From the NCBI GenBank assembly GCA_963662625.1, contig OY759726.1, positions 1,664,001 to 1,728,000 on the forward strand: a stretch of DNA of 64,000 bases. The letters are read 5' to 3'. Numbering within the stretch: the stretch's first letter is position 1; each line of letters opens with the position of its first letter. The DNA is from Nitrosopumilus sp. (GTDB lineage Archaea; Thermoproteota; Nitrososphaeria; Nitrososphaerales; Nitrosopumilaceae). Made by a program: the position numbers and the translations under genes. Shown in pieces: positions 2,424-31,874 of this stretch. Below the pieces are notes generated by a model, which saw only the letters and a list, made by a program, of their open reading frames with translations, did not search any database and was not told the origin of the DNA.

Positions 2424-3341
2424 TCATTTTTTGGATAACGTGCCTGCTTCACACCCACGTGTAACATTACGATATTGCCCGTCCCAAAATATTTCTGCTA
2501 CCATGATGTAGTTGATCCCTATACTACGTAGTTTTTTTCTAACGCCTTTTTTATTCCCATGCAGCATCGATTTAATAAGTGGGTGCCTCATGATAGTTAA
2601 TATTGATTTGAGGGACAGTTTTTTGTTCCAGATGGGCCAAAACGTCTTATTTGTACTCCCGCCCCCGTGTTCACACGACACTGTTTCCAGTCCCTTGTTT
2701 GCAGGAACGCACCAATAGTTGGTAAACCCTACCGCCGCAAGGCGATTTGCACCGTCGACCCCTAGGAATCTATCTTTTGTTGGGTCGCGACTTCTATACG
2801 CATGAGGCCTGTACTCTCTATGATCCCACCTGAACCCTATGTCAGAATCGTCTTTGTATTCCCATTTCTCAAACAACACATTCCAAACATCTTCTTTCAC
2901 ACATTCTGCAGTATCTTCACTGAAATTTGTGGCCTTCATCAACCTCTCCAAAAAGTATTGGTGTCCTGCACCCAACAACATGCACAGTGGTGGGTATTGA
3001 ACATGTTCTTTACGCAATGCGCCGTCTGATCCCAGAGACGCCATTATTTCATGAGGCGTTTTCTCTTGAAGCTTTTGGAATTTCTCAGGCGAAAGTTTTA
3101 GTGTTTTTTCCTCAAACTGCATCAACGATCCGACATGGGCAATCCCCTCCACCACTGCGTCAACCATGTCTGCCTTGTTTGTGGTATGAGACAAGTGCAA
3201 ATGTGGCACAACCCCATCCCATGATGCCTGCGCATTCCATCCTGGACGCGAGTAGTCCAGCACTTTGAGCAGGCCTAGCAACGCAAGAAACGCTAAAAGA
3301 TTGTCGTGTTCAAATCCCGCCAGCCTGATCTCGCTATTCAT
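2424..3341 (-). CDS. csb3: Type I-G (I-U) short large subunit Csb3 (Cas8g2-type)
   Basis: 305 aa, last gene of a cas7-csb2-cas3 operon; N-terminal L.G....NLLAFLALLG, GAGHQYF and GANRLAAVG motifs; 4-nt overlap with the cas3 stop. Confidence 0.75.
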   Translation of the reverse strand: MNSEIRLAGFEHDNLLAFLALLGLLKVLDYSRPGWNAQASWDGVVPHLHLSHTTNKADMVDAVVEGIAHVGSLMQFEEKTLKLSPEKFQKLQEKTPHEIMASLGSDGALRKEHVQYPPLCMLLGAGHQYFLERLMKATNFSEDTAECVKEDVWNVLFEKWEYKDDSDIGFRWDHREYRPHAYRSRDPTKDRFLGVDGANRLAAVGFTNYWCVPANKGLETVSCEHGGGSTNKTFWPIWNKKLSLKSILTIMRHPLIKSMLHGNKKGVRKKLRSIGINYIMVAEIFWDGQYRNVTRGCEAGTLSKK

Positions 3342-6202
3342 GAGGATGCCTCCTTTTCAGATTGGCGGTGATCTGCCAAGCGGATCATGGCCTCCATGTA
3401 CGCCAGTTGCCAATACCCGTATTTTTGGCATAAATGTTCTACCATTTCTATCCACCCAGAATCTATCCGCATGAGGTCGTAGTTTGATACCGCTTTTACA
3501 CCATCAAACCGGAATGTTCTGGAATAGTCCGCGTACTTCCCACTGACAATCGGGAACACTGGCCTGCCATACCCATGATGCGTTCCTATTAGGTATTCTA
3601 CAAGCTGATGATCGTGTGAGTTTTTCATGCTGGGATGGCTCCTTGCGATGTTTACCGACCAGCATTCGTGCCTATATCCTGAAGGGAGCCGCGCCAAATC
3701 TAGGAATTTTTCATATTCTTTTTTGCTATCTATGCTTGATGTTCCCTTTGCAATCAACTTGTCATCTAACAACTCATCCGGATCTTGCTTGCGCAACAGT
3801 GCCTGCACCCTTTTCTCTGCCTTTCCAGCATCGTGTAATAACGCGGCCAACTCTATGTCCTTCAGAATTTTTTTATTCATTCCTACACTGGTTCCAAACG
3901 CCTCTACATGTTCTTGCACGCCCTTGCAATGCCGCAGCAAATCGATGGGCTTGGTGCCCATGGCAGATTTGTATTCTTCCTCCGTGGTAGATTCCCCTCC
4001 GTGGATTTCATTTTGTGCATAGCCATACATGTCTGAGTCTGGATCGCTTGAAAATATTTCTTTGATCTCTTCCAGCGTGACTTTTCGTTTGTATGTGACA
4101 CCCTGTACCAATGCAGCGTCACCGCTAACCACAATCTTTACATCTGTGGATTTAATGTTGCGTTTCATTATGTTGAGCATACCCTTCCACATTGTGGGAA
4201 TTCCTTCTATGGAATGGATTCCATTTAATAGATCGCCGGTGTTTCCTGATTCTGAATATTCCGCAATAATTTTTTTGACTTGATCGCACACATCAGAACC
4301 ACACACAGATTTTACAAACTCTTCGTTTAATCGTATTCCCAATCTCCTTCGATGAATGATGTTGGCCTCGATTCCGATATCTGAAACAGGTACTCTGCTG
4401 TTGTCATCCCAACCGTATCTGTCACACCCGCCACGCGTGGAAGGTACCAATATGACATCACCCGGCTTTATGCTTCCTGAATCTATGTGTTCTGTACCGT
4501 TACCTGCCCACCGCACAACTCTGCCATCGGATCCACTTCCTTCGCTTTCAAGAACTCCCTCCATGTCGCTCAGGGAGTAATCCGTTTCGCTTGAGAGCCA
4601 TTTCTTAGCGGTCCAGACAGGGATCGATACGGCCTCCAGCGGCGATGGTGGGTTGACCAGTGTCTGATCAGTTTCTGTTTCACCTGTAATGTCGACGCGC
4701 CAAATCAACTGTATGTCTGGGGATTTGGACTCCCTTCCATGTAAAAAGAACTGTGGGGCTGGATCTGGGTTGGGGGGAGGCCTAGTTTGTGCCCAAAACT
4801 GCAGATATAGGGGATTCAGGGTTACAGTGTCTGCCCTTGGCGCAATGATGTCTTCGCCCTCAGGCAGTTTGAAGTATTTTATGCCAAAATCCACTATGTT
4901 TTCGTCTGCATGTTCTTCAAGATGCTTCCACACATGTGGTAGCACCTTCCCATACACAGGATCCGGTTTGTTGCTAGAGAGTTCCTGTTTGATTGCTATG
5001 ATCACTGCGTTGCTGGAATTGTTGTTTCCAAATCTATTCAGCCTGCCAAAACGTTGGCATAATGAATCAACAGGTGCAATCTGCGTCACCATGGCATCGA
5101 AGCTCACGTCTACGCCTACCTCGACGCATTGTGTTGCTACAAAGAAAACTTTTTTCCCTGGCATAATCTCGGCTTCGCCACGTATGGCTTCGATGCTATT
5201 TTTTACAAATGTGTCACGTTCAAGCGGCCTTGCCCTGCCTATGAGGAGATGAACAACACATCCTTTATACCTGCTGTTTTGCTCGATCCGCCTTCCTATC
5301 AGTGAAAATACATCCCTTGCCATCTTCACCCTGTTCACCACCACGCCTATGGATTTCACACTGTCGCCCTCGGCCAGTTTGAATGCCGACTCGACAAATT
5401 TTTCACGCTGCTTATCCATGTTAGTGGTTATGAGTTCCGCATACTTGTGTGCGGATATTCTCTTTTGCAGTTTGTCGTCGTTGAACATTTTATCCTTGCT
5501 GTTGGGCCATGATGAACTCTTGTCTGCAAGCGTGGCGCTCATAAACACGAACTTGAACGGCAGCATTGCGTTCTCAGGTTGCATGGCCTGGATGCTCTTC
5601 AGCGTGTCACAGAAGGGCTTCGACGTGTGGGCTTCGTCCAAAATATATAGCACATCCGATCCAAGCAAGCCTGCGTGGATGGGCTTCATCGAGTCTGACA
5701 CACCATACCCTCGAAATAACAGTCTAGAGCCTGCCTGGTCTACGGTAGAAATAATCACAGATGGCTGTGTGGGGGTTCTAACCCAGTCATTTTCTTGTGG
5801 CATGCCGCCCCTGATCTTGACTACCTCCAATGGCACGCCGTGAAATGAAGTGTTTTTGAGCAATTTAGCTATCTGTCTTGACACGCGCCCTTGTGACTCT
5901 CGTATGTTTTTAGCAATTTTGCACGCATGCCTAAAGGCGTCATCCACCACCAGGCGACGATCAACAACAAAAACTATCCTCATGGGTGCTTTTCTGTTTT
6001 GCTTCTTGGCGGACTCTAGCGCTAGATGAAATACCGCTATGTCGATCACTGATGTCTTTCCGGCCGCGGTGGGAAGGTTTAATGCTTGGGGCCATTCCCC
6101 GGCCGTACATACCTGCTCTGCAAGCTTAGATTGCCACTTGAATGGGGGGTGCCCGTGCGTCTCCTCAAAGAAGGTACTGAAATCAGACGTAGCGAGTCTC
6201 AT
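3338..6202 (-). CDS. cas3: Type I-G Cas3 helicase-nuclease (HD domain C-terminal)
   Basis: LPTAAGKT, VVDRR, STVDQAGSRLLFRGYG, DEAH, MSAT, QRFGRLNR; C-terminal LLRHC...HDAGK HD domain. The ATG at 6202 overlaps the csb2 stop (ATGA). Confidence 0.95.
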   Translation of the reverse strand: MRLATSDFSTFFEETHGHPPFKWQSKLAEQVCTAGEWPQALNLPTAAGKTSVIDIAVFHLALESAKKQNRKAPMRIVFVVDRRLVVDDAFRHACKIAKNIRESQGRVSRQIAKLLKNTSFHGVPLEVVKIRGGMPQENDWVRTPTQPSVIISTVDQAGSRLLFRGYGVSDSMKPIHAGLLGSDVLYILDEAHTSKPFCDTLKSIQAMQPENAMLPFKFVFMSATLADKSSSWPNSKDKMFNDDKLQKRISAHKYAELITTNMDKQREKFVESAFKLAEGDSVKSIGVVVNRVKMARDVFSLIGRRIEQNSRYKGCVVHLLIGRARPLERDTFVKNSIEAIRGEAEIMPGKKVFFVATQCVEVGVDVSFDAMVTQIAPVDSLCQRFGRLNRFGNNNSSNAVIIAIKQELSSNKPDPVYGKVLPHVWKHLEEHADENIVDFGIKYFKLPEGEDIIAPRADTVTLNPLYLQFWAQTRPPPNPDPAPQFFLHGRESKSPDIQLIWRVDITGETETDQTLVNPPSPLEAVSIPVWTAKKWLSSETDYSLSDMEGVLESEGSGSDGRVVRWAGNGTEHIDSGSIKPGDVILVPSTRGGCDRYGWDDNSRVPVSDIGIEANIIHRRRLGIRLNEEFVKSVCGSDVCDQVKKIIAEYSESGNTGDLLNGIHSIEGIPTMWKGMLNIMKRNIKSTDVKIVVSGDAALVQGVTYKRKVTLEEIKEIFSSDPDSDMYGYAQNEIHGGESTTEEEYKSAMGTKPIDLLRHCKGVQEHVEAFGTSVGMNKKILKDIELAALLHDAGKAEKRVQALLRKQDPDELLDDKLIAKGTSSIDSKKEYEKFLDLARLPSGYRHECWSVNIARSHPSMKNSHDHQLVEYLIGTHHGYGRPVFPIVSGKYADYSRTFRFDGVKAVSNYDLMRIDSGWIEMVEHLCQKYGYWQLAYMEAMIRLADHRQSEKEASS

Positions 6203-7677
6203 GGCTCTCCACTCATGCACAAACCCAATCCGTAGTACCGCCCTGAACCTAGCAACAACGGACCACGTATCTTGTATTTAAATTCCAACACTGCATGACA
6301 GATGAATTTGTTATCTAGCATTCCTGCCTTGGGAGATTTCCACCCCCTGTTTGATTTTGACACGAATGCCGCAGGTGCACCGGCCACTTGAGAATACCTG
6401 GATATTTTTACGCGTTCCGGCCTTGGGAGCCCAACATTCTCACAACTGTCGGATATTATGGTCTCTGCACTCTTGTTTTTCTTTGGGTGCTTGTCCAACA
6501 CAATGGGGGTGACTGTATCCCATACACTGCTCTTAGTGGTATACCGTTGCGACTGCAAGGACATCTTGTCCTCATTGGATTTTTTGAGTTTTATGACAGC
6601 ATGTTCGCTAAGATAAAGTGTTCCCACATCGTCGCGATCAGATTTGTCATGATCTGAATTCAGGAACCTAAACACAGAGCGCTTTAATTGGATCCTTTCA
6701 TCCGTTCCATATGATGATCTGCTAGGTAATACCAGCGCAATTCCAACAAGCCTGCCGTCAGAATACTCTTTCCATCCGACGTTCGCCATGGGGATTATGG
6801 CCATGTGTGGTTTTTGAAGGACACCTTTGTTCCGGCCATGTCCTGAGATCACCTCGTGTATGGGGTCATCTATGTGTGACATTATGGCGTTCCTGAGCTT
6901 TTTTGCTATTATAGGAAATGATTCCAATGGGGGATTGATGTCGCCTTTCACACATGAAAGAATGATCCAGTCACCCCCCATGTTGTTTGGGATGTCTTCT
7001 GGCACGAATTCGTGATACTGGCAAGTGGGTGCCGCATTTGGTCTCCACACAAACCGTCCGCCAGTACTAGAATGGGATTCATATTCCTGACTCACGTTAT
7101 CAAAGCGTCCCTTGTATGGGCACCGCATGGAGATCATCCCATCATCATCACAGACATACTTGTTTTCCCATGCGTAGTTTGTATTGGACTTTAATACAAC
7201 CCTTACCAGCGATGCGGGATGGCCTAACCATGATATTCGATTTGCAATGTTCTGCAATGAGCCGTATGTTTTCTCTGGGATGCTTGTGTTATTCCAGACT
7301 AGATGGATGCAACACTGATCATTTGGAAGTATAACTGCCGGAAACGCCCTCTCTTTTCTCGCTATGCTGTTCTCCATCTCGTATATTGGAATATTTTTCA
7401 GGTACTTTGGTAGATTTTCACTGTTGCTTGATGTCGGAACAAAATTTGTGAATGAATCACGTAGATTCGTGTCTGGGAATAGTATGTCTGGTGGATTCTG
7501 AGCCTCAAGCCATCGCAATGCATTGGATTCCTCAGAATCTTTGCCTGATTGACCCCATGCTGCAACAAATGCTAAAAACACTCTGTCTGGGTGTGGGGGC
7601 CACTCTGCCTGGTTTTTTTTATCATGCCGTGCTGCAAATGAGACACGATTAAGATACTCGATTTCAATTGAAAACAT
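6199..7677 (-). CDS. csb2: Csb2 (Cas5-Cas6 fusion RAMP)
   Basis: EWPPHPDRVFLAFVAAW N-terminus, WDTVTPIVL, C-terminal GPLLLGSGRYYGLGLC glycine loop. Confidence 0.93.
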   Translation of the reverse strand: MFSIEIEYLNRVSFAARHDKKNQAEWPPHPDRVFLAFVAAWGQSGKDSEESNALRWLEAQNPPDILFPDTNLRDSFTNFVPTSSNSENLPKYLKNIPIYEMENSIARKERAFPAVILPNDQCCIHLVWNNTSIPEKTYGSLQNIANRISWLGHPASLVRVVLKSNTNYAWENKYVCDDDGMISMRCPYKGRFDNVSQEYESHSSTGGRFVWRPNAAPTCQYHEFVPEDIPNNMGGDWIILSCVKGDINPPLESFPIIAKKLRNAIMSHIDDPIHEVISGHGRNKGVLQKPHMAIIPMANVGWKEYSDGRLVGIALVLPSRSSYGTDERIQLKRSVFRFLNSDHDKSDRDDVGTLYLSEHAVIKLKKSNEDKMSLQSQRYTTKSSVWDTVTPIVLDKHPKKNKSAETIISDSCENVGLPRPERVKISRYSQVAGAPAAFVSKSNRGWKSPKAGMLDNKFICHAVLEFKYKIRGPLLLGSGRYYGLGLCMSGEP

Positions 7678-7683
7678 TTCCAG

Positions 7684-8877
7684 CTAGTCTGCTTTAGGCT
7701 CTCTTGATTTTTTTATGAGATCGACAAGTTTTTTTTGTGGGGTTAGTTTTATGAATTCGGTTTCCCAACGAAGCCCCCGTTTTTTTGCGTTTTTTACGGA
7801 ATCTACCAGCAACATTTTTGCGCCATCTGCAGTTAATTGCATCTTTTTTATGTCACCGTCATTCTCGATGATTTCAAAGCATGATTTTTCTTCTGGATAC
7901 AAATCGCATCTTGACCTAAGCGAAAAACCATTTTTGTCATGTTGTGTCACTGCGCAAAGCGATAATGCTGCGAGTGTAGTCCATGCAGCTAGATTCCTTT
8001 CGTGGGTGACGGTATTATCCTCGTTAGGGAATGATAGCCGTCTGAGCCCTGCAAACGTTATAGCTGTGGTTTGCTGTGCATAATCCATTGTAACACCCTG
8101 CTCTGATATGATCGGTGGGATGTTTCCGTGCATTACATCTGACGGTTTGGCATTTTTACTGTCTGCAAACTTGCCTAGCGACCACTTGGCGGAAGACTTT
8201 GACTTGAAAATTTCAACCTTCTCTATCTCTAACGGATCGATTCTGCTCCCTGGCTTTTTGCCCTCAGCCGTATAGTGATGATTACCAGCTTGGTCATGTT
8301 CATTCTTGACCGGAACATTGACTCCGACGATTTCTGAAACCACGCATCGTTGAAATCTGGGCCCGTTTCCACCTCTGTCGCCACTGGAGTTCCATCCGCC
8401 AAAAATTAGTGTGGTGGGAGAGTAGTGAAACAATTCTGTAGCGTTTGATGGAGTGGCTTTGTCTACCGCAACACCAATATCTGTTTTAGGAAAGTCCACT
8501 TTGTTTAGCTGAGAATCGCGTATGATCGCATCAAATATTCTGTGCGGGGCTGTCAAAACGGAAACTGTGCCTATTCCATCTATATGATCACTAAAGTCTA
8601 CACCTATGTTGGGAATTTCTAACTCCCCTGCCTGTAAGGCGTTTGATAAGGCTATTTCAAATCTGTTAGCTTGTGATTGCACACTGTCAAGCAAAACACA
8701 TACTGTGTCTTTGCCATCAATTCGTCTTTTCTCAAAAATATGTATTGGTTTTTTATCATTTCCAAGATAAGTTGGTGGTGAAACGTAACTGCCTGTTTTA
8801 TTAATCGGCTGTAAACGACGAACGCGACGTATAGCACTTGAATTTGATACAGTTTCCATAAACTCGGCGATCTTCAT
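7684..8877 (-). CDS. cas7: Csb1/Cas7 backbone subunit, type I-G
   Basis: VSPPTY, LLDSVQSQANRFE, APHRIFDA, LIFGGWNS, LRSRCDL motifs. Confidence 0.93.
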   Translation of the reverse strand: MKIAEFMETVSNSSAIRRVRRLQPINKTGSYVSPPTYLGNDKKPIHIFEKRRIDGKDTVCVLLDSVQSQANRFEIALSNALQAGELEIPNIGVDFSDHIDGIGTVSVLTAPHRIFDAIIRDSQLNKVDFPKTDIGVAVDKATPSNATELFHYSPTTLIFGGWNSSGDRGGNGPRFQRCVVSEIVGVNVPVKNEHDQAGNHHYTAEGKKPGSRIDPLEIEKVEIFKSKSSAKWSLGKFADSKNAKPSDVMHGNIPPIISEQGVTMDYAQQTTAITFAGLRRLSFPNEDNTVTHERNLAAWTTLAALSLCAVTQHDKNGFSLRSRCDLYPEEKSCFEIIENDGDIKKMQLTADGAKMLLVDSVKNAKKRGLRWETEFIKLTPQKKLVDLIKKSREPKAD

Positions 8878-8899
8878 TTATACGTATACTAAGTGGATG

Positions 8900-8920
8900 T
8901 ATGTAGTTATAATCTTTATG
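8900..8920 (-). promoter_or_regulatory. Putative BRE/TATA promoter of cas operon 1
   Basis: Minus-strand AAAGATTATAAC about 30 nt upstream of the cas7 ATG (8877). Confidence 0.5.
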
Positions 8921-8928
8921 CAGTATTC

Positions 8929-10225
8929 TAGTCTGTTGCACAACTCGGCACGATCCCCGGGCCGTGGCCAGGCCGTGCCGCTTGGAGTCCCTACGCCCCC
9001 GCCTCCCCCGCCCACCGGTTGTACTGGGCCACCCTGAGCCTTACCTCCTGCACGATGTTCTCCCACCTGCGCGAGTGCACGTGGTCCCCGAACATCCTCT
9101 TGAACGCCGATATGATTATCTCGATCAGCCACCTCCTGCCGTACCCCTTCCTGGCCTTCCAGTACCGGACGTTCTCCTCCCTCTCCCTCGTGCCCATCCT
9201 GTCGACGCGCGCCTCCGGGCCGCCCCCCAGCTGGTCCCGCACCGCCTCGCCCCACGCGCCGCCGGCGCCCTTGCCCCTGGCGGTGGACGCCACCTTGACC
9301 GGGATGATAGGCCCCACGCCCATGTCGCGGCACCTCCGCATGTTGTCCCGCGACGCGTACGCCCCGTCCGCGATCAGGCGCGCCCCGTGGGAGCCGGGCG
9401 GCTGGCCGCACTGCAGCGCGAGCGGCGCCACGCCGCTCGCGAGGAGGTTGGGCGGGGGCGAGCCCACGCGCGGCAGGGGATCCCCCGCCGCGGCTGCCTT
9501 CCCGCGGATCAGCGCCATGCGCCTGTCCTGCTTCCCCGCCGGCTTCCCGTCCGGCTTCCCGTCCGGCTTCCCGTCCGGCTTCCCGCCACGCGGCTCCACC
9601 ACGGTTCCCAGGAGCTCCTTCAGCATGGGGGAGTCGCCCGTCCTGTCGTCGGTCACCACCGCCGCGAGTATCTTCTTCGTGTCGGCGTCGGCCAGCAGGT
9701 GCAGCTTGACGAACCCGCGCTTCACCTTCCACTTCTTCCGTATCCACTCGCCCCGGTTGCACTGCTTCAGGCCCGTGGCGTCGGCCAGCAGGGTCATGGG
9801 CTGGCCGCCGCCGGAGACGCGGACGACTCCCCCGCCGATGTCCACGTCGAGGCGCGCCATCCTCCTGGCCAGCACCGAGTAGTGCGGCGCGCCGTGCCCC
9901 CCCAGCATCCCCGCGAGGAGCCCGGACAGCTGCCTGTACTGTACCCCGAGCGAGGTCCTCACCGCGGCGGCGGCCATGACCAGCGCCCCGGCGTACCTGA
10001 ACGGGGCGCCCTCCTTGCCGGCGTTGGCCTCCCTCAGGTCGTCCTCCCAGCCGGGGTCATACGACACAGCCAGGCCCCTCCCGCGCCTGACGTATTTCTC
10101 GTTGTCGGTCGCAGCCAACGGGGACGGTGCGCGGCCGTGATCCAAGGCCTTTTCGGTTTGACATGGTTGGGCCGGGGGTTCAACTGTTTAGACCCGGCAA
10201 TTTCTGGCAGTTGTGCAACAGACTA
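8929..10225 (-). mobile_element. IS5-family element with perfect 17-bp TIRs and 8-bp TSD
   Basis: TIR TAGTCTGTTGCACAACT at 8929-8945 and inverted at 10209-10225; direct repeat CAGTATTC at 8921-8928 and 10226-10233. Confidence 0.9.
8991..10145 (-). CDS. IS5-family DDE transposase
   Basis: LLADATGLK, RGFVKLHL, LIADGAY, YGRRWLIE..S.FKR motifs; internal 12-bp tandem repeat encoding (GKPD)n at ~9530-9587. Confidence 0.88.
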   Translation of the reverse strand: MDHGRAPSPLAATDNEKYVRRGRGLAVSYDPGWEDDLREANAGKEGAPFRYAGALVMAAAAVRTSLGVQYRQLSGLLAGMLGGHGAPHYSVLARRMARLDVDIGGGVVRVSGGGQPMTLLADATGLKQCNRGEWIRKKWKVKRGFVKLHLLADADTKKILAAVVTDDRTGDSPMLKELLGTVVEPRGGKPDGKPDGKPDGKPAGKQDRRMALIRGKAAAAGDPLPRVGSPPPNLLASGVAPLALQCGQPPGSHGARLIADGAYASRDNMRRCRDMGVGPIIPVKVASTARGKGAGGAWGEAVRDQLGGGPEARVDRMGTREREENVRYWKARKGYGRRWLIEIIISAFKRMFGDHVHSRRWENIVQEVRLRVAQYNRWAGEAGA

Positions 10226-10238
10226 CAGTATTCGGGTA

Positions 10239-11283
10239 TGTGTAGTATATGAAAAGTCGGTCCGCTAGTCATCCGCCTCCGCCTCCATCCATCCCGGGTT
10301 GCTCTCCCTGATCGCTGCCACGGCCTCCTTGTCATGGAAGGCCTTCAGCGGGGCCTGGTAGTTGTCGATGTCCGGGGAGAAGTGCAGCCTGTCCTCGTTG
10401 TAGTACGCCATGTACTCGGACATGCTCTCGTAGTGCCATGTCTCGTCCTCCACGCTCCGGAAGAACCTCTCGATCTTCCCGTTGGTCTGGGGGTGGTGCG
10501 GCCTGGAGTTTATGAGCTCGATCCCGAGGCCCGGCAGCTCCGCCTCGAACGCGGTGGGCTTCCACGGCCGGGGAGGGGCCTTCCTGCGGCCGTTCCGGCC
10601 CACGAGGCACGAGCCGTTGTCGGAGAGCACGGTGGCCGGCGTGCCGAACCGCCCGATCGCGTCCCTGAGCGCCAGCACGGCGTTCTCCGACGTGGCCTGC
10701 GTGAACACGCGCGCGGCCACCGCGCACCGCGAGGCGTCGTCCAGGTACGCGACCAGCTGGAGGCCCCTGAACCGGGGGTCCTTCATCTCGTGCCAGTCGA
10801 CGTGCCACATGGCGTTCGAGTATTTGCGCTCGTAGCGCACCCACTTGCGCCTCCTCGATTTTGCGGCAGACGCGGCCACCGCCCCGGCCTTCTTCAATAT
10901 CCGGTATACGGAGCAGTAGCTTATATCATGGTCCCTCCTGAGGCGCCTCGCGGTGCGCACCACGCCTGCAGGGCGCCTCCCGTGGGCGCCGGTGACCAGC
11001 CGTATCATGGCGGCGGTCATGCAGGCGCGCGGCCTGCCCATCCTCGCCGCCGCCGCTCCGGTCCCCGGGAACCTCGCCCGCGGCCCCCGCACGTGCCTGG
11101 CGGCGATTCCCAGATCCCGCGCCACTTGGGATGACGGCACGTTCCTCTCTCGCTGCCTGACCAGGTACTTCCGGGACCCCCCAGCAAGTCTTTCTGTCAT
11201 GGCCTTCCGTGATCGGTACAGCCTAAAATAGTCGGCTACCGTCCTCTTGATCCGGTGCGGACCGACTTTCCGTACAATTGACA
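10239..11283 (-). mobile_element. IS481-family element
   Basis: TGT...ACA ends; 27-bp imperfect TIRs sharing AAAGTCGGTCCGC (10239-10265 and 11257-11283); flanking GTATTC(G/A)GGTA near-duplication. Confidence 0.85.
10265..11200 (-). CDS. IS481-family (rve integrase core) transposase
   Basis: WVRYER..SNAMWHVDW, YLDDASR, LSDNGS, PQTNGKIERF motifs. Confidence 0.88.
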   Translation of the reverse strand: MTERLAGGSRKYLVRQRERNVPSSQVARDLGIAARHVRGPRARFPGTGAAAARMGRPRACMTAAMIRLVTGAHGRRPAGVVRTARRLRRDHDISYCSVYRILKKAGAVAASAAKSRRRKWVRYERKYSNAMWHVDWHEMKDPRFRGLQLVAYLDDASRCAVAARVFTQATSENAVLALRDAIGRFGTPATVLSDNGSCLVGRNGRRKAPPRPWKPTAFEAELPGLGIELINSRPHHPQTNGKIERFFRSVEDETWHYESMSEYMAYYNEDRLHFSPDIDNYQAPLKAFHDKEAVAAIRESNPGWMEAEADD

Positions 11284-11359
11284 GTATTCAGGTATGGGGT
11301 CACGTATGCTGACCTTTTAATCAACACGGCGCGATCATGCTGATCCGTATGGCAGGAGG

Positions 11360-11800
11360 TGTCAGTACGTGCGTGGCAAGGCGCAGAACGACCAAGCAGC
11401 TGGAGGGCCTGCTGGCATGAGCGCTCTACTATATCTACTCAAGTCAAAATACAAGGAGGCGGTGGCAGAAGCCAGGAGGCTCCAGGCCCGCCTCGCGCAC
11501 CACGGGAACGCCCACTCCCCGCCGCCGCCCAAGTCGCTGGAATGGAAGGAAGCCCTGCGGGCGAGGAGGAAGGCCCGGAAGGTGGCGCCGGAAGGGGGCG
11601 GCGGCAGGGCCCCCGCCGGGAGGCCCGGCGGGCAGCCGGGGCACCGCGGAGCGTCCTGTGGGCACACGCCGGGGTGCACGGCGTGCCACGGGTTCGAGGG
11701 GGACACCCTGCGCCGGGTTTTGCGTGGCAAGGCACGCCGGAGGGAAGCCTCTGATCCCCACGCACATTTGATCGCCGCCATGCGGCTGGATCGCCTTGCG
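11360..11800 (+). pseudogene. Internally deleted IS66-like transposase remnant
   Basis: RLAHHGNAHSPPP..S and GRPGGQPGHRG are N-terminal IS66 TnpC-like motifs, joined to the C-terminal block also seen at 255-660. Confidence 0.55.
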
Positions 11801-11847
11801 GCAGTATGGAAAAAATTAATACCACATAGAAGTATTATTTACCGTAC

Positions 11848-12453
11848 ATGAAACTACACAGCTATCTGGAGCAATTGCTTGGTCACAGGACTTCGATCAG
11901 CGTGCTTCGCACCCTGGTAAGGCACAGGGGCAAGATCTTCACCATAAGGAGGCTGGCGAGCGATGCCGGGGTTTCGCATCCCAGCGCGTCTGAAACCGTT
12001 GGAGAACTGGACAAGCTCGGGGTCGTGCAGATCCAGCCGATAGGCAGGTCCCACCAGGTCTCATTAAATGAAAAAAGCCACGTCCTGAAAAAAATCATAG
12101 TGCCGATGTTTGCTGCCGAAGAGCGGACGTTTGGAGAAATGATCCTGGTTCTCAAAAAGCACCTGGGCATAGAAAAAAACATCTCGGCCGCAGTTTTTGG
12201 TAGCGTCTCAAAAGGCCAAGAAAAGGAAGGCAGCGACATTGACGTCCTTGTCATATCGAATGATTTTGACGGTGCCATATCGGCGGCGTCAGACGCGGGG
12301 GAGGATGTCTTTGCAAAATTCCACGGTAAAGTCTCCCCCATCGTATTCTCAGAGTCAGAATTCATGTCGAAAAAGGGAAGCGACCTTGTGCGCTCCATTC
12401 TGGGCAGCCACATCATGATACACGGAAGAAGCTTGGAGGATCTCTTGAAATGA
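11848..12453 (+). CDS. HTH-fused minimal nucleotidyltransferase (MNT) antitoxin
   Basis: N-terminal wHTH (TIRRLASDAGVSHPSASETV); VFGSVSKG...SDIDVLVI nucleotidyltransferase signature. Confidence 0.85.
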   Translation: MKLHSYLEQLLGHRTSISVLRTLVRHRGKIFTIRRLASDAGVSHPSASETVGELDKLGVVQIQPIGRSHQVSLNEKSHVLKKIIVPMFAAEERTFGEMILVLKKHLGIEKNISAAVFGSVSKGQEKEGSDIDVLVISNDFDGAISAASDAGEDVFAKFHGKVSPIVFSESEFMSKKGSDLVRSILGSHIMIHGRSLEDLLK

Positions 12454-22900: not shown

Positions 22901-25900
22901 GGAAATCCAGCACCAGCGGCAGGGCCTGCCGCGCAAATACGCCGCTTCAATGGGGCCGTAACTTCTACGTTACGGAAATCAAATATCGCCGTTGACGCGG
23001 CCCTGACATACGCTGCTTCAATGGGGCCGTAACTTCTACGTTACGGAAATCCGCGGACTTTGAGGCGCGTTGGAGGGCGGGGGTCGCTTCAATGGGGCCG
23101 TAACTTCTACGTTACGGAAATCCACGGTCCAGGGTGACCGGGGCGAGATAGTGGTGGAGCTTCAATGGGGCCGTAACTTCTACGTTACGGAAATCTGACA
23201 TCATAGCAGAGATCCAGCCCAAACTCCAAGGCTTCAATGGGGCCGTAACTTCTACGTTACGGAAATTGTGAAAAAGTCGGCGGTGGCCCGCTCGCGCGAA
23301 GCGGCGCTTCAATGGGGCCGTAACTTCTACGTTACGGAAATCCGCCCAGGTCCCCGGGCGGCCAGCAGCTGCTGCTGCTTCAATGGGGCCGTAACTTCTA
23401 CGTTACGGAAATCGTGCGAGTACGGCGTGATCCCGCAAGTGTTGGAGTCGCTTCAATGGGGCCGTAACTTCTACGTTACGGAAATATTCCGTCGTGCGTC
23501 CCGAGCACGTCCGCGTATTGATGCTTCAATGGGGCCGTAACTTCTACGTTACGGAAATGTCAATCTTCATGGTTCGAAGGAGATCAGTCATGGTCTGCTT
23601 CAATGGGGCCGTAACTTCTACGTTACGGAAATTCCGATATCGCGTGGCCCTCCACGAAGAACTGCGGGGGCTTCAATGGGGCCGTAACTTCTACGTTACG
23701 GAAATGGCGGCGAGCAGCTCCATCCAAAAGACGCTAAACGACATAGCTTCAATGGGGCCGTAACTTCTACGTTACGGAAATGTCCTCCGCGCCGAGGTAG
23801 CGGAGAGAGTCGTCGCAGCTTCAATGGGGCCGTAACTTCTACGTTACGGAAATCATCATGGCGCGTGGGGGACCGAGGGCAGCCGGGGTGCGCTTCAATG
23901 GGGCCGTAACTTCTACGTTACGGAAATACCACGGCCCGGAAGCAATTGAACGCGGTGCTGATGCTTCAATGGGGCCGTAACTTCTACGTTACGGAAATCT
24001 CGGGGGTGCGGGCACCCCGGCAGAGTCCAGGACGAGCTTCAATGGGGCCGTAACTTCTACGTTACGGAAATATAAGCGCCTCTGGCTGGACGAACTGAGC
24101 CGCCTGCGGCTTCAATGGGGCCGTAACTTCTACGTTACGGAAATTGACGAGGACGACCATGCCGACGAGCCGTTCAGGTTTGGCTTCAATGGGGCCGTAA
24201 CTTCTACGTTACGGAAATCTGGCCGCCATGCCTGGCGGGGAGGCCGAACTGGACCGCTTCAATGGGGCCGTAACTTCTACGTTACGGAAATCGGGCGCGG
24301 CCCGATCCAGAGCGGGCGGGTCCTGACGGCTTCAATGGGGCCGTAACTTCTACGTTACGGAAATCTCATGACCGACGCGGAGCGCGACGGCGTACTAGCC
24401 GCTTCAATGGGGCCGTAACTTCTACGTTACGGAAATTGGGAGTGCGCCGGGCGGAGCTCGACGCCGATGCGGAGCTTCAATGGGGCCGTAACTTCTACGT
24501 TACGGAAATCGCTGGCCGACACCGCGCTGGGGGGCGAGCTCGGGAGGCTTCAATGGGGCCGTAACTTCTACGTTACGGAAATTCGGCAAACGTCGTGGTG
24601 TTCGTCTCCGGGGCCGCCGCTTCAATGGGGCCGTAACTTCTACGTTACGGAAATCTCCGCCTGGCGACATACCCGTCGGGCGCCGTGAAGCTTCAATGGG
24701 GCCGTAACTTCTACGTTACGGAAATGGCGGCCCAAAACTTCCCAAGCTGACCGAGTCGGAAGCTTCAATGGGGCCGTAACTTCTACGTTACGGAAATCCC
24801 ACACGGCGATCCAGCCCAGCATCACCACGGGCAAGCTTCAATGGGGCCGTAACTTCTACGTTACGGAAATATGGCAGACGACATTGGCGCGTGGGTCAGC
24901 ACCCTCCTTGCTTCAATGGGGCCGTAACTTCTACGTTACGGAAATCTGCGTGACGACGTCACCAAACAGTTTCACATTTAGCTTCAATGGGGCCGTAACT
25001 TCTACGTTACGGAAATGTCCTTTTTTTCTTCGCCGTCGCGGTCCAGGTGCGCGGCTTCAATGGGGCCGTAACTTCTACGTTACGGAAATCTGACCCATCA
25101 ACTGCTCATAACTCGGTTGGAAGGTGCTTCAATGGGGCCGTAACTTCTACGTTACGGAAATCGCGCCGGTGCCGCTGTCCGCTGGCGAATCACTGCAAGT
25201 GCTTCAATGGGGCCGTAACTTCTACGTTACGGAAATCGCCGCGACCCGGCCCCGCACTGGTCGGGCGAGCTGGGCTTCAATGGGGCCGTAACTTCTACGT
25301 TACGGAAATACCGACATGCCGGTGGAGCGCGTCCCCGGCCCGTACGCTTCAATGGGGCCGTAACTTCTACGTTACGGAAATGTCGGGCGTGGTGTATACC
25401 GTCACCGTCACCGCGACGCTTCAATGGGGCCGTAACTTCTACGTTACGGAAATCGTCCCGTTCCCGGGCGCGCCGTTGGCATCGTACAGGCTTCAATGGG
25501 GCCGTAACTTCTACGTTACGGAAATCACGCCGGCGGGAACATGGCAGACGCCGCGTCTTGGCAGCTTCAATGGGGCCGTAACTTCTACGTTACGGAAATT
25601 TGAACTTGGGAACCTTGACTCCATCCGGTAAATGTGGCTTCAATGGGGCCGTAACTTCTACGTTACGGAAATGCCGTCAGGCATCGCCTCTCTGCACGGC
25701 GCGCGCCAGGCTTCAATGGGGCCGTAACTTCTACGTTACGGAAATAGGCTAAGGCCCGACCAGGACACCAAGTCGGAACAGCTTCAATGGGGCCGTAACT
25801 TCTACGTTACGGAAATCTGGTGCTGGAACACCGGGACCTTGACCGCGGTGCCGCTTCAATGGGGCCGTAACTTCTACGTTACGGAAATTAGACAGGAAGG

Positions 25901-28900
25901 AGTCGCGGCGGCTGGCGAAGGGCAGCTTCAATGGGGCCGTAACTTCTACGTTACGGAAATTTCTGTCGCGTTTTCCATATGCATGTGAGAGTTGATGCCG
26001 CTTCAATGGGGCCGTAACTTCTACGTTACGGAAATAGTTCGCCCGCGCCCGGTATTCCGACGGCATGGACATGGCTTCAATGGGGCCGTAACTTCTACGT
26101 TACGGAAATCGGCAACGGCATCACGGTGCAGGTGCTGGCTCCGTCGCTTCAATGGGGCCGTAACTTCTACGTTACGGAAATGACTTTGTGACGTGCCCGT
26201 CCTCGTCGCGCGTGCTCGCTTCAATGGGGCCGTAACTTCTACGTTACGGAAATGACAGGAAAAATACGCCGCCGGGTTCCGCTACATGGCTTCAATGGGG
26301 CCGTAACTTCTACGTTACGGAAATAAGGCTGGGAATCTCCGTGCGGGCGCTCGGCATGATGCTTCAATGGGGCCGTAACTTCTACGTTACGGAAATAGGG
26401 AGGAGGGTGCCTAGTGCACCCCTCCGACTCTGGCTTCAATGGGGCCGTAACTTCTACGTTACGGAAATAATATCACAATAATCCAATATATTCGGTTGTG
26501 CCAGCTTCAATGGGGCCGTAACTTCTACGTTACGGAAATCCCGCGGGGGCCCCGTTGGCAATGCTCGCCGTAGCTAGCTTCAATGGGGCCGTAACTTCTA
26601 CGTTACGGAAATCATCATAATCTTCTGGAAATGCGAGCCTAATCGGGATGCTTCAATGGGGCCGTAACTTCTACGTTACGGAAATCACCAGACGGGGAAC
26701 GGAACAACGCGATCGCGTAATAGCTTCAATGGGGCCGTAACTTCTACGTTACGGAAATGTGATGGACGGGTGCCAACTGGATTCCCCCGAACTACGGCTT
26801 CAATGGGGCCGTAACTTCTACGTTACGGAAATTGGGGTGAGCGTGGGAATGACCGCGTCGTGCCGCCGCGCTTCAATGGGGCCGTAACTTCTACGTTACG
26901 GAAATCTGCGTGACGACGTGAGCAAACAGTTTCACCTTTAGCTTCAATGGGGCCGTAACTTCTACGTTACGGAAATGCCATGACGACGTGGAGGGCCTGG
27001 GTGCTCAGGCACGGGCTTCAATGGGGCCGTAACTTCTACGTTACGGAAATCTCCTCGACGCATACGAGTGGCGGGTAGTATTGCTCGCTTCAATGGGGCC
27101 GTAACTTCTACGTTACGGAAATCCGCGACGGGGTGCACCCACGTCGGCCCAGAGTGTGAGCTTCAATGGGGCCGTAACTTCTACGTTACGGAAATTTCAC
27201 CAGGTCCGCATTCGTGACCTTCCCGGCGTCGCTTCAATGGGGCCGTAACTTCTACGTTACGGAAATGGGCATCCGGCACGCATGTACGCTATCAGCTCGC
27301 CGACGCTTCAATGGGGCCGTAACTTCTACGTTACGGAAATTTCCGTCGTGCGGCCCGAGCACGTCCGCGTGCTGCTGCTTCAATGGGGCCGTAACTTCTA
27401 CGTTACGGAAATCGCCCTGAAGTCCGTCAAACTCGGCAAGCTGAGCCTGCTTCAATGGGGCCGTAACTTCTACGTTACGGAAATGGGGGGTTGAAAATTG
27501 GGAGTCTCTGGTCACGGACGGCTTCAATGGGGCCGTAACTTCTACGTTACGGAAATCACATTTACAAGATGGAGTCGAGGTTCCCGTCATCGCTTCAATG
27601 GGGCCGTAACTTCTACGTTACGGAAATCCGCGCCATACCCGCGTTGCCCGCGCCACCGGAGCCGGCTTCAATGGGGCCGTAACTTCTACGTTACGGAAAT
27701 ATCCGCTCCTACCAGCGCGCCCACAAGCGGTTCCTCGCTTCAATGGGGCCGTAACTTCTACGTTACGGAAATCGGCTGATCGCCTCGAAGGCACCACCAC
27801 CACAAGAAATGCTTCAATGGGGCCGTAACTTCTACGTTACGGAAATCACGTCGCAATCCTCATGCCAGGACGCCGCCCCCTCGCTTCAATGGGGCCGTAA
27901 CTTCTACGTTACGGAAATTGGCCATGCGCTCCTTCTGCTCCTGGGCGTATTCATCGCTTCAATGGGGCCGTAACTTCTACGTTACGGAAATCACGACGAT
28001 AGGCAAGATGCTGGAGCAGGCGTTCGGTGCTTCAATGGGGCCGTAACTTCTACGTTACGGAAATCCGCCCGTCGCGGCCCTGAATCCCGGCACCACGACA
28101 TGCTTCAATGGGGCCGTAACTTCTACGTTACGGAAATGACCAGATGCAACACGCGCTCGACGATGCTGTTGGCGGCTTCAATGGGGCCGTAACTTCTACG
28201 TTACGGAAATCAAAAAACGGCTCACCCGTGAGCAGAAGGCGCTACGGCTTCAATGGGGCCGTAACTTCTACGTTACGGAAATTCGTCCAATCAGGTGCGT
28301 GCATTCCTCGCGCACCTTCCAGCTTCAATGGGGCCGTAACTTCTACGTTACGGAAATGCCAAGCTCAGTGCTGAACTTTGTCGCGACGCTCATCCGCTTC
28401 AATGGGGCCGTAACTTCTACGTTACGGAAATGGCCGCGTTTTTTGACGCGATGGCGCGGCTCGGCATCGCTTCAATGGGGCCGTAACTTCTACGTTACGG
28501 AAATCGCCGGGACCACCGGCGCGGCAACGTCATGGTGGCAAGGCTTCAATGGGGCCGTAACTTCTACGTTACGGAAATATCCCCTCCACATGGAAGGCCT
28601 GTTTGCGACTGGTGGGCTTCAATGGGGCCGTAACTTCTACGTTACGGAAATGACGCGCAGATCGCAGATATCTACCAGCGCGAGTATCCGCTTCAATGGG
28701 GCCGTAACTTCTACGTTACGGAAATTAGACAAGTGGTTGGTTCGGGTACCGCCGACGTGGGGGCTTCAATGGGGCCGTAACTTCTACGTTACGGAAATTG
28801 TGGAGGCAAGTGATTACGCCGCGGCGTTGCGCGGCGCTTCAATGGGGCCGTAACTTCTACGTTACGGAAATCAGGAGAAGGATTTCTTGTGGACTCATTG

Positions 28901-29742
28901 CCCCGTAAGGGCTTCAATGGGGCCGTAACTTCTACGTTACGGAAATCTGCGCAAGCGCATGATGCTGGATGCCGAGTACCCGGCTTCAATGGGGCCGTAA
29001 CTTCTACGTTACGGAAATAACGCATGGTGCGCCTTGCCCACCAGGCGGCGCGCGGCTTCAATGGGGCCGTAACTTCTACGTTACGGAAATGCTGGCCGGG
29101 CCATTCGCCGGCCTGACAGACCCCGTGCTTCAATGGGGCCGTAACTTCTACGTTACGGAAATCCGCCGGAGGGGGGCGACTCCGTCGAGATGTTGGCGCT
29201 TCAATGGGGCCGTAACTTCTACGTTACGGAAATGATTCAGGCGGGCCTGTATGCCAACTTGGGCCAAATTGCTTCAATGGGGCCGTAACTTCTACGTTAC
29301 GGAAATCAGCAGACCCCGGAGGGGATACGCATCCCCCCGGGGCTTCAATGGGGCCGTAACTTCTACGTTACGGAAATGGTTATGTGTCTATCGGTCATGG
29401 GCGCAACGTATGAGCTTCAATGGGGCCGTAACTTCTACGTTACGGAAATCGGCAGGAGGGGCAGTATTTCATTTGTTGCCCGTCAGCTTCAATGGGGCCG
29501 TAACTTCTACGTTACGGAAATTGGACACGGCCCACCTCATCTCGGAGGGGGAGGTAAAGGCTTCAATGGGGCCGTAACTTCTACGTTACGGAAATCAAAA
29601 TTATCCATCAGTCTTCCCTGGTTTCCTTGGCTTGCTTCAATGGGGCCGTAACTTCTACGTTACGGAAATCCCTCGACCTCGCGCAGGTGTACGAGGTGAG
29701 GGGAAAGCTTCAATGGGGCCGTAACTTCTACGTTACGGAAAT
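19977..29742 (-). CRISPR. CRISPR array, ~135 identical 36-bp repeats and ~134 spacers of ~34-40 bp; repeat (transcribed sense) ATTTCCGTAACGTAGAAGTTACGGCCCCATTGAAGC
   Basis: Plus-strand GCTTCAATGGGGCCGTAACTTCTACGTTACGGAAAT, hand-counted 135 times, with internal palindrome CCGTAAC/GTTACGG. The ATTGAAGC 3' end typical of I-G, the leader beside cas2 and the degenerate repeat at the far end indicate minus-strand transcription. Confidence 0.98.
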
Positions 29743-29917
29743 CCTGCCGCCGCGCCGACATCTGCCGCCGCGCCTTTGGTTTTCGGACGGTTCAGGCCCG
29801 GCGGCGGCGGTTTCGGCCAGCCGGGGAAGCGCGGGGCCGCGCTCCAGGCCTTCCTATATAAGATTCCTGCGAGCGCCGGCGCCTGCGCGGGGCGGGCCGC
29901 TGCTTCTCGCGGCCGGC
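29743..29917 (-). promoter_or_regulatory. CRISPR leader
   Basis: Non-coding gap between cas2 and the first repeat; isolated TATA-like CTTATATAGG (minus strand, ~29853-29862) in GC-rich sequence. Confidence 0.7.
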
Positions 29918-30205
29918 TCATATCACTATGGCGGCCTCCCTCTGCATGTCGAACGCGGCCCCGATGGTGCTGATCCTGCCGCCGCTCCTGTCCGCGGGGC
30001 CCACGTTGACTATCAGGATCCTGTCCTCTGCCAGGTTGAGCAGCCCCTCGAGGTCCTCCCTCATGATCACCACCTCCTTGTCGCTGAGGTCGCACGCGAA
30101 CACGGAGTACTGGACGGGATCCCCGTACCCGTTCATCTTCTTGTACGTCTGGGCCAGCCTCTTCTGGTCTGCCACGTCGTAGCACACGAGGTACCTGTTG
30201 CGCAA
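29918..30205 (-). CDS. cas2: Cas2
   Basis: YLVCYDVAD.KRL......M.GYG.PVQYSVF.C.L. Confidence 0.96.
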   Translation of the reverse strand: MRNRYLVCYDVADQKRLAQTYKKMNGYGDPVQYSVFACDLSDKEVVIMREDLEGLLNLAEDRILIVNVGPADRSGGRISTIGAAFDMQREAAIVI

Positions 30206-30209
30206 CCGC

Positions 30210-31874
30210 TCACCTCGTCCTGAACGCCGGGTATGCCGGGATCTCGCCGAGGACGTGCCTCGACAGCAGCCTTGCCTGCGTCTCCATGATTCGCCTGTAG
30301 CTTGCGGCGTACCCCAGGACGGGGTGCGCTATGGAGGAATCCATCCGCCTCTCGTACGCGCGTATCACCGTCCGCCTCCCGCCGTCAGTGAGGCTGACGC
30401 CAAACCCAGTCCTTACCAAGTCAGATGTGGTGATCTCGCCGTTGTTGATAAGTGTGATGCAGACCGAGTCGGCCACTATGGGCCGGAACTCCTCGATCAG
30501 GTCCAGCGCGAGCGCGGGCTTGCCGTACTTTGGCATGTGGAGGTACCCCATGTACGGGTCAAAGCCCACCGCGCTCACGGTGGTCATTGCCTGCCTTGCC
30601 AGCATCGAGTACAGGAACGACAGCATGGCGTTGACGGGGTCTAGCGGGGGCCTCCTGTTCCTCCCAGCAAAGTCAAAGTCCATGGAGCCGGACTTTACCA
30701 TGCCCGAGAACTCCGAAAAGTACATGCGTGCCGCCATCCCCTCTATGCCCAGGAGGGTCTTGTAATGCCTGGCAAGACGGGCGCGCTGGGCGAGCCCGTC
30801 GATCTCGCCTATCTTGTCCCTCGGGGGATCCCTGTGGTTTCTCCGCAGCATCGTGGCGCAGTTTCTTGCCTTCGCGAACACCATCTCGCGGGCTATGGCC
30901 ACGGACGCCGCCCCGTCCGCGTGCTTTCTGTGCTGGCATGCGCGGAGCTCCACGTTCTTGTGAGCCATGCCGGTGGTCATGCCGGTGAACCACCCGCCGT
31001 ACGTCATGTAGCATATGGGGATTCCCCTGTTGCACAGCTCGCGCACCGCCTGCGTGGTCACCTGCACGTTGCCGAAGACGGTGAGCTCGGAGACGTCGAT
31101 CAGCCTGACCTTCCTCACCTGCTCGTCTTTTTTCACGTGCAGGCAGTCGCCGTGCTTCGACACGTACGATCCCTGCTCCTGCACGTACATCGGGACCGCG
31201 TCGTTCCTGGCAGGGTACATCCTGCGCACCCTCCCCCGGTCGGTATCCCCGCCGCCGCCCGAGAGCATGGCGGTCTCGTCAGGCAGGCATATCCCCACGA
31301 GCGAGCAGCGCGGGCACTTTGGGCTGTCTACCAAGGGGGGCGGGATGGCGCCATTCCCCGCCATCTCCCTCATCTCCTTTAGCATCAGGAGCGTCTTCTC
31401 CACGGTCCCCTCGTCCAGGTCCACCTCGACGCGCTGCCTCGATGCGATATAGTAGACTATCCCCTTGGTGCATGTGTACCCGTTCGCGCGGAGCAGCAGC
31501 CCCTGCGCGCACACCTGCACCACGTGATCCTCGTGCGTCCTGCCCGGGTTCTTCGGGACCGTCCCGCGCTTGTACTCCACCGGCGTGGCCACGTCCCCCT
31601 CGATCTCGAGCAGGTCCATCTTGGATATCATCCCGAGCCCGGCGTCTGACAGCGTGATGGACCTCGCGTGGATCCTTTCGCCCCCGCCCTCGGGCTTTCC
31701 CGCCCCGGACTTCCTGTCCACGTTCCTGTGGCCGTACCTGCCCTCGACCACCTCTGCGTTATACGCGAACTCCCCCTGGACCCACTCCATGTACGCCAGC
31801 CGCTTGCAGTACGCGTACTGCGAAAGCATCCTGACTGGCACGAGATCGGGGCCGCCGATCTTTGGCATGCTCAC
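30210..31874 (-). CDS. cas1: Cas4-Cas1 fusion
   Basis: N-terminal Cas4 (YCKR, D.LE...PVEYKRG, CPRCSLVGICLP); C-terminal Cas1 (LLGIEG.AA..YF, RNRRPP.DPVNAMLSFLY, GYLH, ALDLIEEFRP). Confidence 0.96.
   Translation of the reverse strand: MSMPKIGGPDLVPVRMLSQYAYCKRLAYMEWVQGEFAYNAEVVEGRYGHRNVDRKSGAGKPEGGGERIHARSITLSDAGLGMISKMDLLEIEGDVATPVEYKRGTVPKNPGRTHEDHVVQVCAQGLLLRANGYTCTKGIVYYIASRQRVEVDLDEGTVEKTLLMLKEMREMAGNGAIPPPLVDSPKCPRCSLVGICLPDETAMLSGGGGDTDRGRVRRMYPARNDAVPMYVQEQGSYVSKHGDCLHVKKDEQVRKVRLIDVSELTVFGNVQVTTQAVRELCNRGIPICYMTYGGWFTGMTTGMAHKNVELRACQHRKHADGAASVAIAREMVFAKARNCATMLRRNHRDPPRDKIGEIDGLAQRARLARHYKTLLGIEGMAARMYFSEFSGMVKSGSMDFDFAGRNRRPPLDPVNAMLSFLYSMLARQAMTTVSAVGFDPYMGYLHMPKYGKPALALDLIEEFRPIVADSVCITLINNGEITTSDLVRTGFGVSLTDGGRRTVIRAYERRMDSSIAHPVLGYAASYRRIMETQARLLSRHVLGEIPAYPAFRTR

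Follow-up and report, generated by a model that had tools for sequence, protein, structure and literature searches.

The 64,000-nucleotide stretch of DNA analysed here (the window) comprises bases 1664001-1728000 of contig OY759726.1, the single 1,858,698-base contig of a Nitrosopumilus sp. genome with a G+C content of 63.4%, rated 99.5% complete with 0.3% contamination. It carries a composite type I-G CRISPR-Cas locus, in which one adaptation module and one array are combined with two intact effector operons of different lineages. The host is a thaumarchaeote, as an earlier annotation of the window (the original prediction) had it: high G+C content notwithstanding, its 16S rRNA (1456 bits on the archaeal small-subunit rRNA model) and the archaeal AmoA encoded in the genome (E = 2e-117) agree. 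Read 5' to 3' on the minus strand, the order is cas4/1, cas2, leader, array and operon 2 (cas7-csb2-cas3-csx17); there follow an opposite-strand pair of nucleotidyltransferase and HEPN genes, three mobile elements and, on the minus strand again, operon 1 (cas7-csb2-cas3 and the gene of a 305-residue protein). The components of the CRISPR-Cas locus are listed below in window coordinates, with bit scores followed by the curated cut-off, E values in exponent notation and, for some genes, the G+C content of third codon positions (GC3).

30210-31874, minus strand: cas4/1 fusion, 554 residues (NF049935, 727.6 bits, cut-off 560; GC3 0.88).
29918-30205, minus strand: cas2, 95 residues (Pfam Cas2, 2.9e-17; PADLOC Cas2g, 4e-28; GC3 0.93).
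29743-29917, minus strand: G+C-rich leader of 175 nt that separates cas2 from the array; contains a TTATATA box, a putative promoter.
19977-29742, minus strand: CRISPR array from the repeat search, 135 repeats of 36 nt and 134 spacers of 34-40 nt.
18829-19803, minus strand: operon 2 cas7g/csb1, 324 residues (TIGR02570, 98.6 bits, cut-off 38; GC3 0.58).
17356-18828, minus strand: operon 2 csb2, a Cas5-Cas6 fusion of 490 residues (TIGR02165, 149.9 bits, cut-off 45; PADLOC Cas56g PDLC01778, 5.6e-123).
15041-17359, minus strand: operon 2 cas3g, 772 residues from an internal ATG (TIGR02621, 703.9 bits, cut-off 400; PADLOC PDLC01770, 1.9e-246).
12935-15040, minus strand: operon 2 cas8g1/csx17, 701 residues (TIGR04113, 462.8 bits, cut-off 150).
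7684-8877, minus strand: operon 1 cas7g/csb1, 397 residues (TIGR02570, 75.5 bits, cut-off 38; Pfam Cas_GSU0053, 6.4e-46; GC3 0.38).
6199-7677, minus strand: operon 1 csb2, 492 residues (TIGR02165, 275 bits, cut-off 45; PADLOC PDLC01777, 1e-107).
3338-6220, minus strand: operon 1 cas3g, 960 residues as listed and about 954 from the first ATG (TIGR02621, 707.3 bits, cut-off 400; PADLOC PDLC01769, 4.8e-225).
2424-3341, minus strand: operon 1 short large subunit, 305 residues (NF049934, 118.5 bits, cut-off 65; PADLOC Cas8g PDLC01514, 5e-56).

In a profile search, all eight effector genes and cas4/1 scored above the curated NCBIfam cut-offs, and this typing by hidden Markov models assigns the effector genes of both operons to type I-G. 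All eight lie on the minus strand where they had been placed, which confirms two complete, uninterrupted and co-oriented effector operons. Operon 2 (the Csx17 flavour) has the type I-G complement of a Cas3g with a C-terminal HD motif, Csb2, Cas7g and Cas8g1/Csx17. Its Cas3 carries the motifs GAGKT, DEVQ, QRFGRCNR and YHDVGK, and its HD motif (residue 596) follows those of the helicase; the open reading frame (ORF) as listed extends to 17749. In all three Csx17-flavour relatives checked, motif II of Cas3 likewise ends in Q (DEVQ in genome G182, DEIQ in G168 and G296), so that this residue is a trait of the lineage and not a defect. The genes of operon 2 abut or overlap, leaving no room for a separate cas5, cas6 or cas11; no Cas6 family match was found in the genome, nor any RAMP family match elsewhere in it. 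Operon 1 (the NF049934 flavour) combines Cas3g, Csb2 and Cas7g proteins over their cut-offs with the NF049934 protein encoded beside cas3, and its Cas3 has the motifs AAGKT, DEAH and QRFGRLNR and a C-terminal HD motif, LLHDAGK. The Cas4-Cas1 fusion with Cas2 is of type I-G as well. It is the sole Cas1 match in the 1.86-Mb genome, in line with the single cas4/1-cas2 module originally described.

The two operons are only remotely alike. Between operon 1 and operon 2, BLASTP identity is about 29-30% for Cas3 and about 25%, in patches, for Csb2, with no significant BLASTP match between the Cas7 proteins. The best PADLOC sub-models also differ between the operons for the Cas3g and Cas5-6 proteins, and a recent duplication is thus not their origin. 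The differences in protein build first noticed in the translations are confirmed: Cas7 has 397 versus 324 residues, Cas3 a DEAH versus a DEVQ motif, and the large subunit 305 versus 701 residues. One histidine (H291 in operon 1, H307 in operon 2), at the beginning of the Cas6-like half, is invariant in an alignment of 12 Csb2 proteins that represents both flavours, and a C-terminal Gly-rich motif is conserved too.

The 305-residue protein belongs to NCBIfam NF049934, named 'type I-G CRISPR-associated protein, Cas3-extension family'. Operon 1 had been described as a Csb3-flavoured type I-G operon; the type stands, and the Csb3 label is imprecise, because the protein is an NF049934 member without a match to TIGR04106 (GSU0052/Cas8g2) at E values up to 0.01. 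GSU0052 is the protein that we take to be Csb3. A 254-residue protein of the relative G335 does match TIGR04106 (1.3e-24), at 87.4 bits and so below the cut-off of 125, and its gene stands in the order cas3-254 aa-cas7-csb2. The AlphaFold model of the 305-residue protein, built with 14 homologues (predicted local distance difference test 81.6; predicted template-modelling score 0.87), has a predicted Cas8 fold: its best PDB match is the 649-residue chain of the type I-G effector 8b2x (E = 7.5e-6, probability 1.00; template-modelling score 0.56 by query length), followed by 7tr6_C and 8fcj_I, chains (subunit not stated) of I-A and I-B Cascade entries. Of the type I-G flavours, only Csx17 is represented among these solved-structure matches. 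Profile comparison of the 305-residue protein with Csx17 gives a weak match, N terminus to N terminus (probability 16.5%, E = 0.0015). We read the model as that of a short Cas8g that would lack roughly the C-terminal half. The extra middle part of the operon 1 Cas3 (residues 430-760) was considered as a substitute for the missing half of Csx17 and rejected (profile comparison probability 0.4%).

The 135 repeats of the array carry no mismatches (0 expected in 100 shuffles). In the transcribed, minus-strand sense the repeat reads ATTTCCGTAACGTAGAAGTTACGGCCCCATTGAAGC, and on that strand it folds into a hairpin whose stem has 7 bp and whose loop has 6 nt (-9.7 kcal/mol, z = -3.28), followed by CCCC and then ATTGAAGC. 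The Csb2 of the Thioalkalivibrio type I-G system cuts 4 nt 3' of the hairpin and leaves an 8-nt 5' handle, according to PMC9638904. The spacing of the repeat analysed here would fit such a cut 4 nt 3' of the stem, and a handle of 8 nt, exactly. The array ends towards operon 2 as follows.

19925-19937, minus strand: trailer end, a truncated 136th repeat of 13 nt, reached after a 39-nt stretch of spacer length.
19873-19897 and 19903-19927: inverted repeat of 25 bp, perfect, around a 5-nt loop; it overlaps the truncated 136th repeat.

The degenerate last repeat marks the low-coordinate end as the trailer, so the leader is the stretch beside cas2. The inverted repeat, between the trailer and the cas7 of operon 2, might act as a terminator or be the scar of a recombination event.

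A k-mer screen of the genome gave many matches but no further CRISPR array. Of the matches that were examined, apart from the main array, most fall in coding sequence and have a period that is a multiple of three (21, 27, 51, 54, 63, 69, 72 or 75 nt); the others are a repeat of 55 nt and a tandem repeat of 74 nt, the latter perfect. Coding repeats with a 75-nt period occur at many sites of the genome, and the window also has long tandem repeats of 204/408 nt at 48597-50766. One further candidate, at the edge of the window, had been put forward as an array that might belong to operon 1.

37-147, plus strand: direct repeat of 38 nt in two perfect copies with a period of 73 nt, which do not form a CRISPR array.

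That each operon has its own array, with this repeat serving operon 1, is exceedingly improbable. The 73-nt period and the repeat length do resemble those of the main array. A CRISPR array, taken as at least three regularly spaced repeats of the type that goes with the adjacent cas genes, with spacers that are unique, is nevertheless not what lies here: the two copies are the only ones in the genome, with none continuing to the left, the repeat neither folds significantly (z = +0.5 to +0.6) nor ends in ATTGAAGC, and it was found in 0/300 other genomes of the family. In NF049934-flavour loci with a detected array, nearly all repeats end in ATTGAAGC. Moreover, the 38-nt repeat lies 2.3 kb from operon 1, behind a repeated element and a hicA pair. 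That pair lies at window positions 694-1118 on the minus strand, in a low-GC patch downstream of operon 1, and consists of a hicA toxin gene (Pfam, 1.6e-14) and, upstream of it, the gene of a 70-residue partner that has no Pfam match. The proposal of a separate array falls, and that of two distantly related type I-G operons with one cas4/1-cas2 module and one array at a single thaumarchaeal locus is supported.

Whether two such different effector sets can use one array is addressed by relatives that have only one of them. In a family sample of 401 genomes, this one included, Csx17 is present in 14 and NF049934 in 10 (Cas3g scores over its cut-off in 7/401 genomes of a phylum-wide sample). G068 has NF049934 and no Csx17, and G634 and G686 have Csx17 and no NF049934 match; all three share an identical 36-nt repeat, ATTTCCGTAACGAAAAAGTTACGGCCCCATTGAAGC, which differs from the repeat of the window at 2 loop positions. 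Similarly, an identical repeat is common to L049 (NF049934 flavour, no Csx17 in the genome) and G714 (Csx17 only); G359 and G493, which likewise differ in flavour, have in common a repeat variant with another stem. Cas4/1 identity to the window protein is 74% in L049, 69% in G686, 68% in G696, 67% in G168 and 63% in G068, again unsorted by flavour. Neither the repeat nor the adaptation module thus depends on the effector flavour, and, to judge from these repeats, either Csb2 lineage can evidently handle this repeat family. Relatives of either single flavour with the same repeat family thereby back one of the two original alternatives, that both operons use the 135-repeat array.

Besides this genome, two members of the family sample have both flavours, G168, of the same genus, and G718, which makes 3/401. 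In G718 the NF049934-flavour system is complete and comes with 91 repeats; a Csx17 operon lies 515 kb away, and the 33 kb examined around it (flanks of about 13 kb and 17 kb) contain neither cas1 nor an array. This is again a case of one array for two flavours. In G168, cas4/1-cas2 lies at a contig end, and on another contig the array is followed by the Csx17 operon in the same order as here. A 2.7-kb contig of G168 holds only the C-terminal half of an NF049934-flavour Cas3 and the short large subunit; NF049934-flavour Cas7 and Csb2 were not found in G168 in a search with the window proteins, and the partial second flavour reflects either decay or an assembly gap. The sampled contigs of G168 (L032, L033 and L072) have a G+C content of 39-47%, compared with 63% here, about 8 kb of L072 is without a cas match, and its Cas proteins are 30-67% identical to those of the window despite the common genus. 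Among 20 NF049934-flavour loci from species genomes, none has Csx17 within its flanks (tblastn), and Csx17 lies on other contigs in 2/17 other genomes with the NF049934 flavour. Of the original description of an unusual dual arrangement, rarity therefore holds and uniqueness does not, the tandem layout being seen only here. An extra gene related to Csb2 of the other flavour lies between the short large subunit and cas4/1 at L070:11877-12545 (G718) and L056:11660-13108; in G718 it consists of the Cas6-like half only.

Base composition bears on the history of the locus. GC3 is 0.88 in cas4/1 and 0.93 in cas2, 0.58-0.72 in operon 2 and 0.38-0.51 in operon 1, and the mean G+C content of the spacers, 0.637, is close to the 0.634 of the genome. 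The high GC3 of the adaptation module, together with spacers that match the genome in composition, suggests that module and array have long been resident and active in a high-GC lineage. From its intermediate GC3 we infer that operon 2 arrived earlier, and the lowest values point to operon 1 as the most recent arrival, probably from a lower-GC relative. Together, these values suggest a resident adaptation module, an older operon 2 and a recently imported operon 1.

We propose, with a probability of roughly 60%, that at this composite locus both Cascades share one pool of CRISPR RNAs (crRNAs) and that operon 1 is the more recent import. The adaptation module would feed the array, and the leader next to cas2 would drive its minus-strand transcription. 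The Csb2 of each operon would cut the repeat 4 nt 3' of the 7-bp hairpin, yielding the 8-nt handle ATTGAAGC, and both Cascades would load crRNAs from the same pool, each working with its own Cas3. The effector operons would then be interchangeable cassettes on a conserved base of adaptation module and repeat, operon 1 having come more recently from a lower-GC relative.

Several observations weigh against this proposal; they concern the mobile elements around operon 1, the targets of the spacers and the fragment in G168, and are set out here with the alternatives on which they bear. The elements that flank operon 1 are the following.

8929-10225: IS-A, an insertion sequence (IS) with 12-nt inverted ends and an 8-bp duplication, GAATACTG.
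10241-11282: IS-B, with an rve integrase domain, repeated in the genome.
11292-11718: repeated element with copies elsewhere in the genome.
8878-8928, minus strand: 51 A+T-rich nt between IS-A and the start of the operon 1 cas7, with the TATA-like sequence AAAGATTATAA; candidate promoter.
1197-2308: repeated element downstream of operon 1 with an ORF bearing a helix-turn-helix domain (HTH_29/HTH_28); two near-full copies (88-90%) and fragments elsewhere.

Repeated mobile elements are a heavy load on this genome, at 8929-11718, 1197-2308 and 291-608 of the window and elsewhere. IS-A has at least eight further near-full copies in the genome, including one that is 100% identical, which argues for recent activity of the element and a recent insertion.

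The tandem layout could in principle be an artefact of assembly, sequence of two strains or two loci having been joined at the IS cluster. We examined contigs of four short-read runs of one study; the source sample may be among these runs, and their evidence is therefore not independent. None of them spans the cluster (8958-11620), the IS copies being multi-copy in the genome and short-read contigs stopping in them; contiguity across 8.9-11.7 kb rests on the assembly itself. The contigs do cover operon 1 (2187-8957) and operon 2 (11620-20000), at near-equal depths of 24.5 versus 26 in run X1 and 3.7 versus 5.9 in run X2, and a contig of run X3 (7729-9561) bridges the operon 1 cas7 into IS-A. 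An apparent deletion of operon 1, seen as a joint of 566 to 11611, was traced to another genomic copy of the repeat pieces at 9423-9595. The completeness and low contamination of the single-contig genome, and the clean 8-bp target duplication of IS-A at the site, also speak for the layout. A chimera across the IS cluster, named at the outset as a way in which the prediction could fail, is therefore very unlikely.

The elements bear more directly on whether operon 1 is expressed. IS-A lies 51 nt upstream of its first gene, cas7, and may separate the operon from its promoter, and the second repeated element lies directly downstream. Operon 1 might be a recently imported, IS-flanked passenger, silent or decaying, with operon 2 alone working with the array; the dual state would then be a passing stage of effector turnover. 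This, the main alternative, is possible, if rather unlikely. It agrees with operon 1 having the lowest GC3 of the locus, and with the NF049934 flavour being found only as a fragment in G168, from which it follows that the second flavour can decay. Yet none of the four ORFs of operon 1 is interrupted over its 6.4 kb, all conserved motifs that were checked are there, a TATA-like box remains in the A+T-rich 51 nt left upstream, and single-flavour relatives use the NF049934 flavour with the same repeat.

The spacers, numbered from the trailer end, add a further point of doubt. Two of the 134 match the host chromosome perfectly. Spacer 113 (37/37) matches 837999-838035, in a winged-helix regulator gene between the genes for the PolD large subunit and PcrB and cdc6, and spacer 132 (38/38) matches 1799688-1799725, in a hydantoinase/oxoprolinase gene. 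The three bases 5' of these self-protospacers, in crRNA sense, are TGA and GGC, and not TTN, the protospacer adjacent motif (PAM) reported for another type I-G system (PMC9638904). The self-spacers are equally compatible with PAM-dependent interference, in which only PAM-less ones survive, and with inactive interference. The complete array, compared by megablast with 50,697 phage records, gave no protospacer outside the genome; individual spacers were not run against viral or metagenome contigs.

In archaea such as Pyrococcus furiosus and the Sulfolobales, several effector modules share arrays and one adaptation module. The locus described here likewise has one adaptation module and a common repeat for several interference complexes; those archaea mostly combine different subtypes or types, whereas here two flavours of one subtype stand in tandem. 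All components are from known families, several effectors on one array are a known principle, and the locus is a modest variation on it.

Among type I-G systems, that of Thioalkalivibrio sulfidiphilus (8b2x) resembles operon 2 in Cas7, Csb2, Cas8g/Csx17 and a Cas3 with a C-terminal HD domain, and the locus in its Cas4/1 fusion and its 36-nt hairpin repeat, with a spacing that fits the reported cut (PMC9638904). It differs from the present locus in that the latter has an archaeal host, the order cas7-csb2-cas3-cas8g behind the array and an operon of a second flavour after it. The NF049934-flavour loci have the order cas7-csb2-cas3-short large subunit, as in operon 1, wherever the flank is long enough; cas4/1 lies beside the operon in 12/20 of them and an array was detected in 11/20, whereas operon 1 has neither and stands behind another type I-G operon. 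Closest to the operon 1 proteins are homologues from Nitrosopumilaceae, at 41-64% identity, with bacterial ones at about 30-45%. The type I-G system GSU0051-0054 of Geobacter sulfurreducens (Cas8g2, TIGR04106) shares its Cas3g, Csb1 and Csb2 families with the present locus; unlike its GSU0052, the 305-residue protein of operon 1 has no TIGR04106 match. A literature search, supplements excluded, found no description of type I-G systems in Nitrosopumilaceae or archaeal ammonia oxidisers, and two type I-G flavours in one locus are not described in the available parts of PMC9638904, bioRxiv 10.1101/2022.08.19.504415 and PMC10333696, again supplements excluded.

The genes between and beside the cas operons include two candidate systems.

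11848-12453 and 12450-12836, plus strand: a winged helix-turn-helix-nucleotidyltransferase gene and a HEPN gene (Pfam NTP_transf_2, 3.9e-8; HEPN, 1e-5).
31974-33503, minus strand: AAA_14/DUF4143 ATPase gene, directly upstream of cas4/1.

The nucleotidyltransferase/HEPN pair, between the two operons, corresponds to the PADLOC candidate PDC-M05A/B and the ATPase to the PADLOC candidate PDC-S01.

Of the type I subtypes, type I-G is called the least understood (PMC9638904), and the main value of the locus lies in two of its flavours standing side by side on one repeat. Because both are on one repeat, a single reconstitution set could show the role of the missing C-terminal half of Cas8g, and the same reconstitution could also reveal differences between the flavours in PAM or in response to anti-CRISPRs. 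A wider view, which we hold only tentatively, is that effector cassettes with large subunits of different families are swapped, and sometimes stacked, on a stable base of adaptation module and repeat in Nitrosopumilaceae, and that both Cascades here are active on one crRNA pool. With large subunits and Cas3 proteins so different, the two would on this view differ in PAM range or in sensitivity to anti-CRISPRs, and the pair would defend the cell better than either alone. The comparison across Nitrosopumilaceae offers a clean example, in an ecologically important group, of modular effector exchange on a fixed base of adaptation module and repeat.

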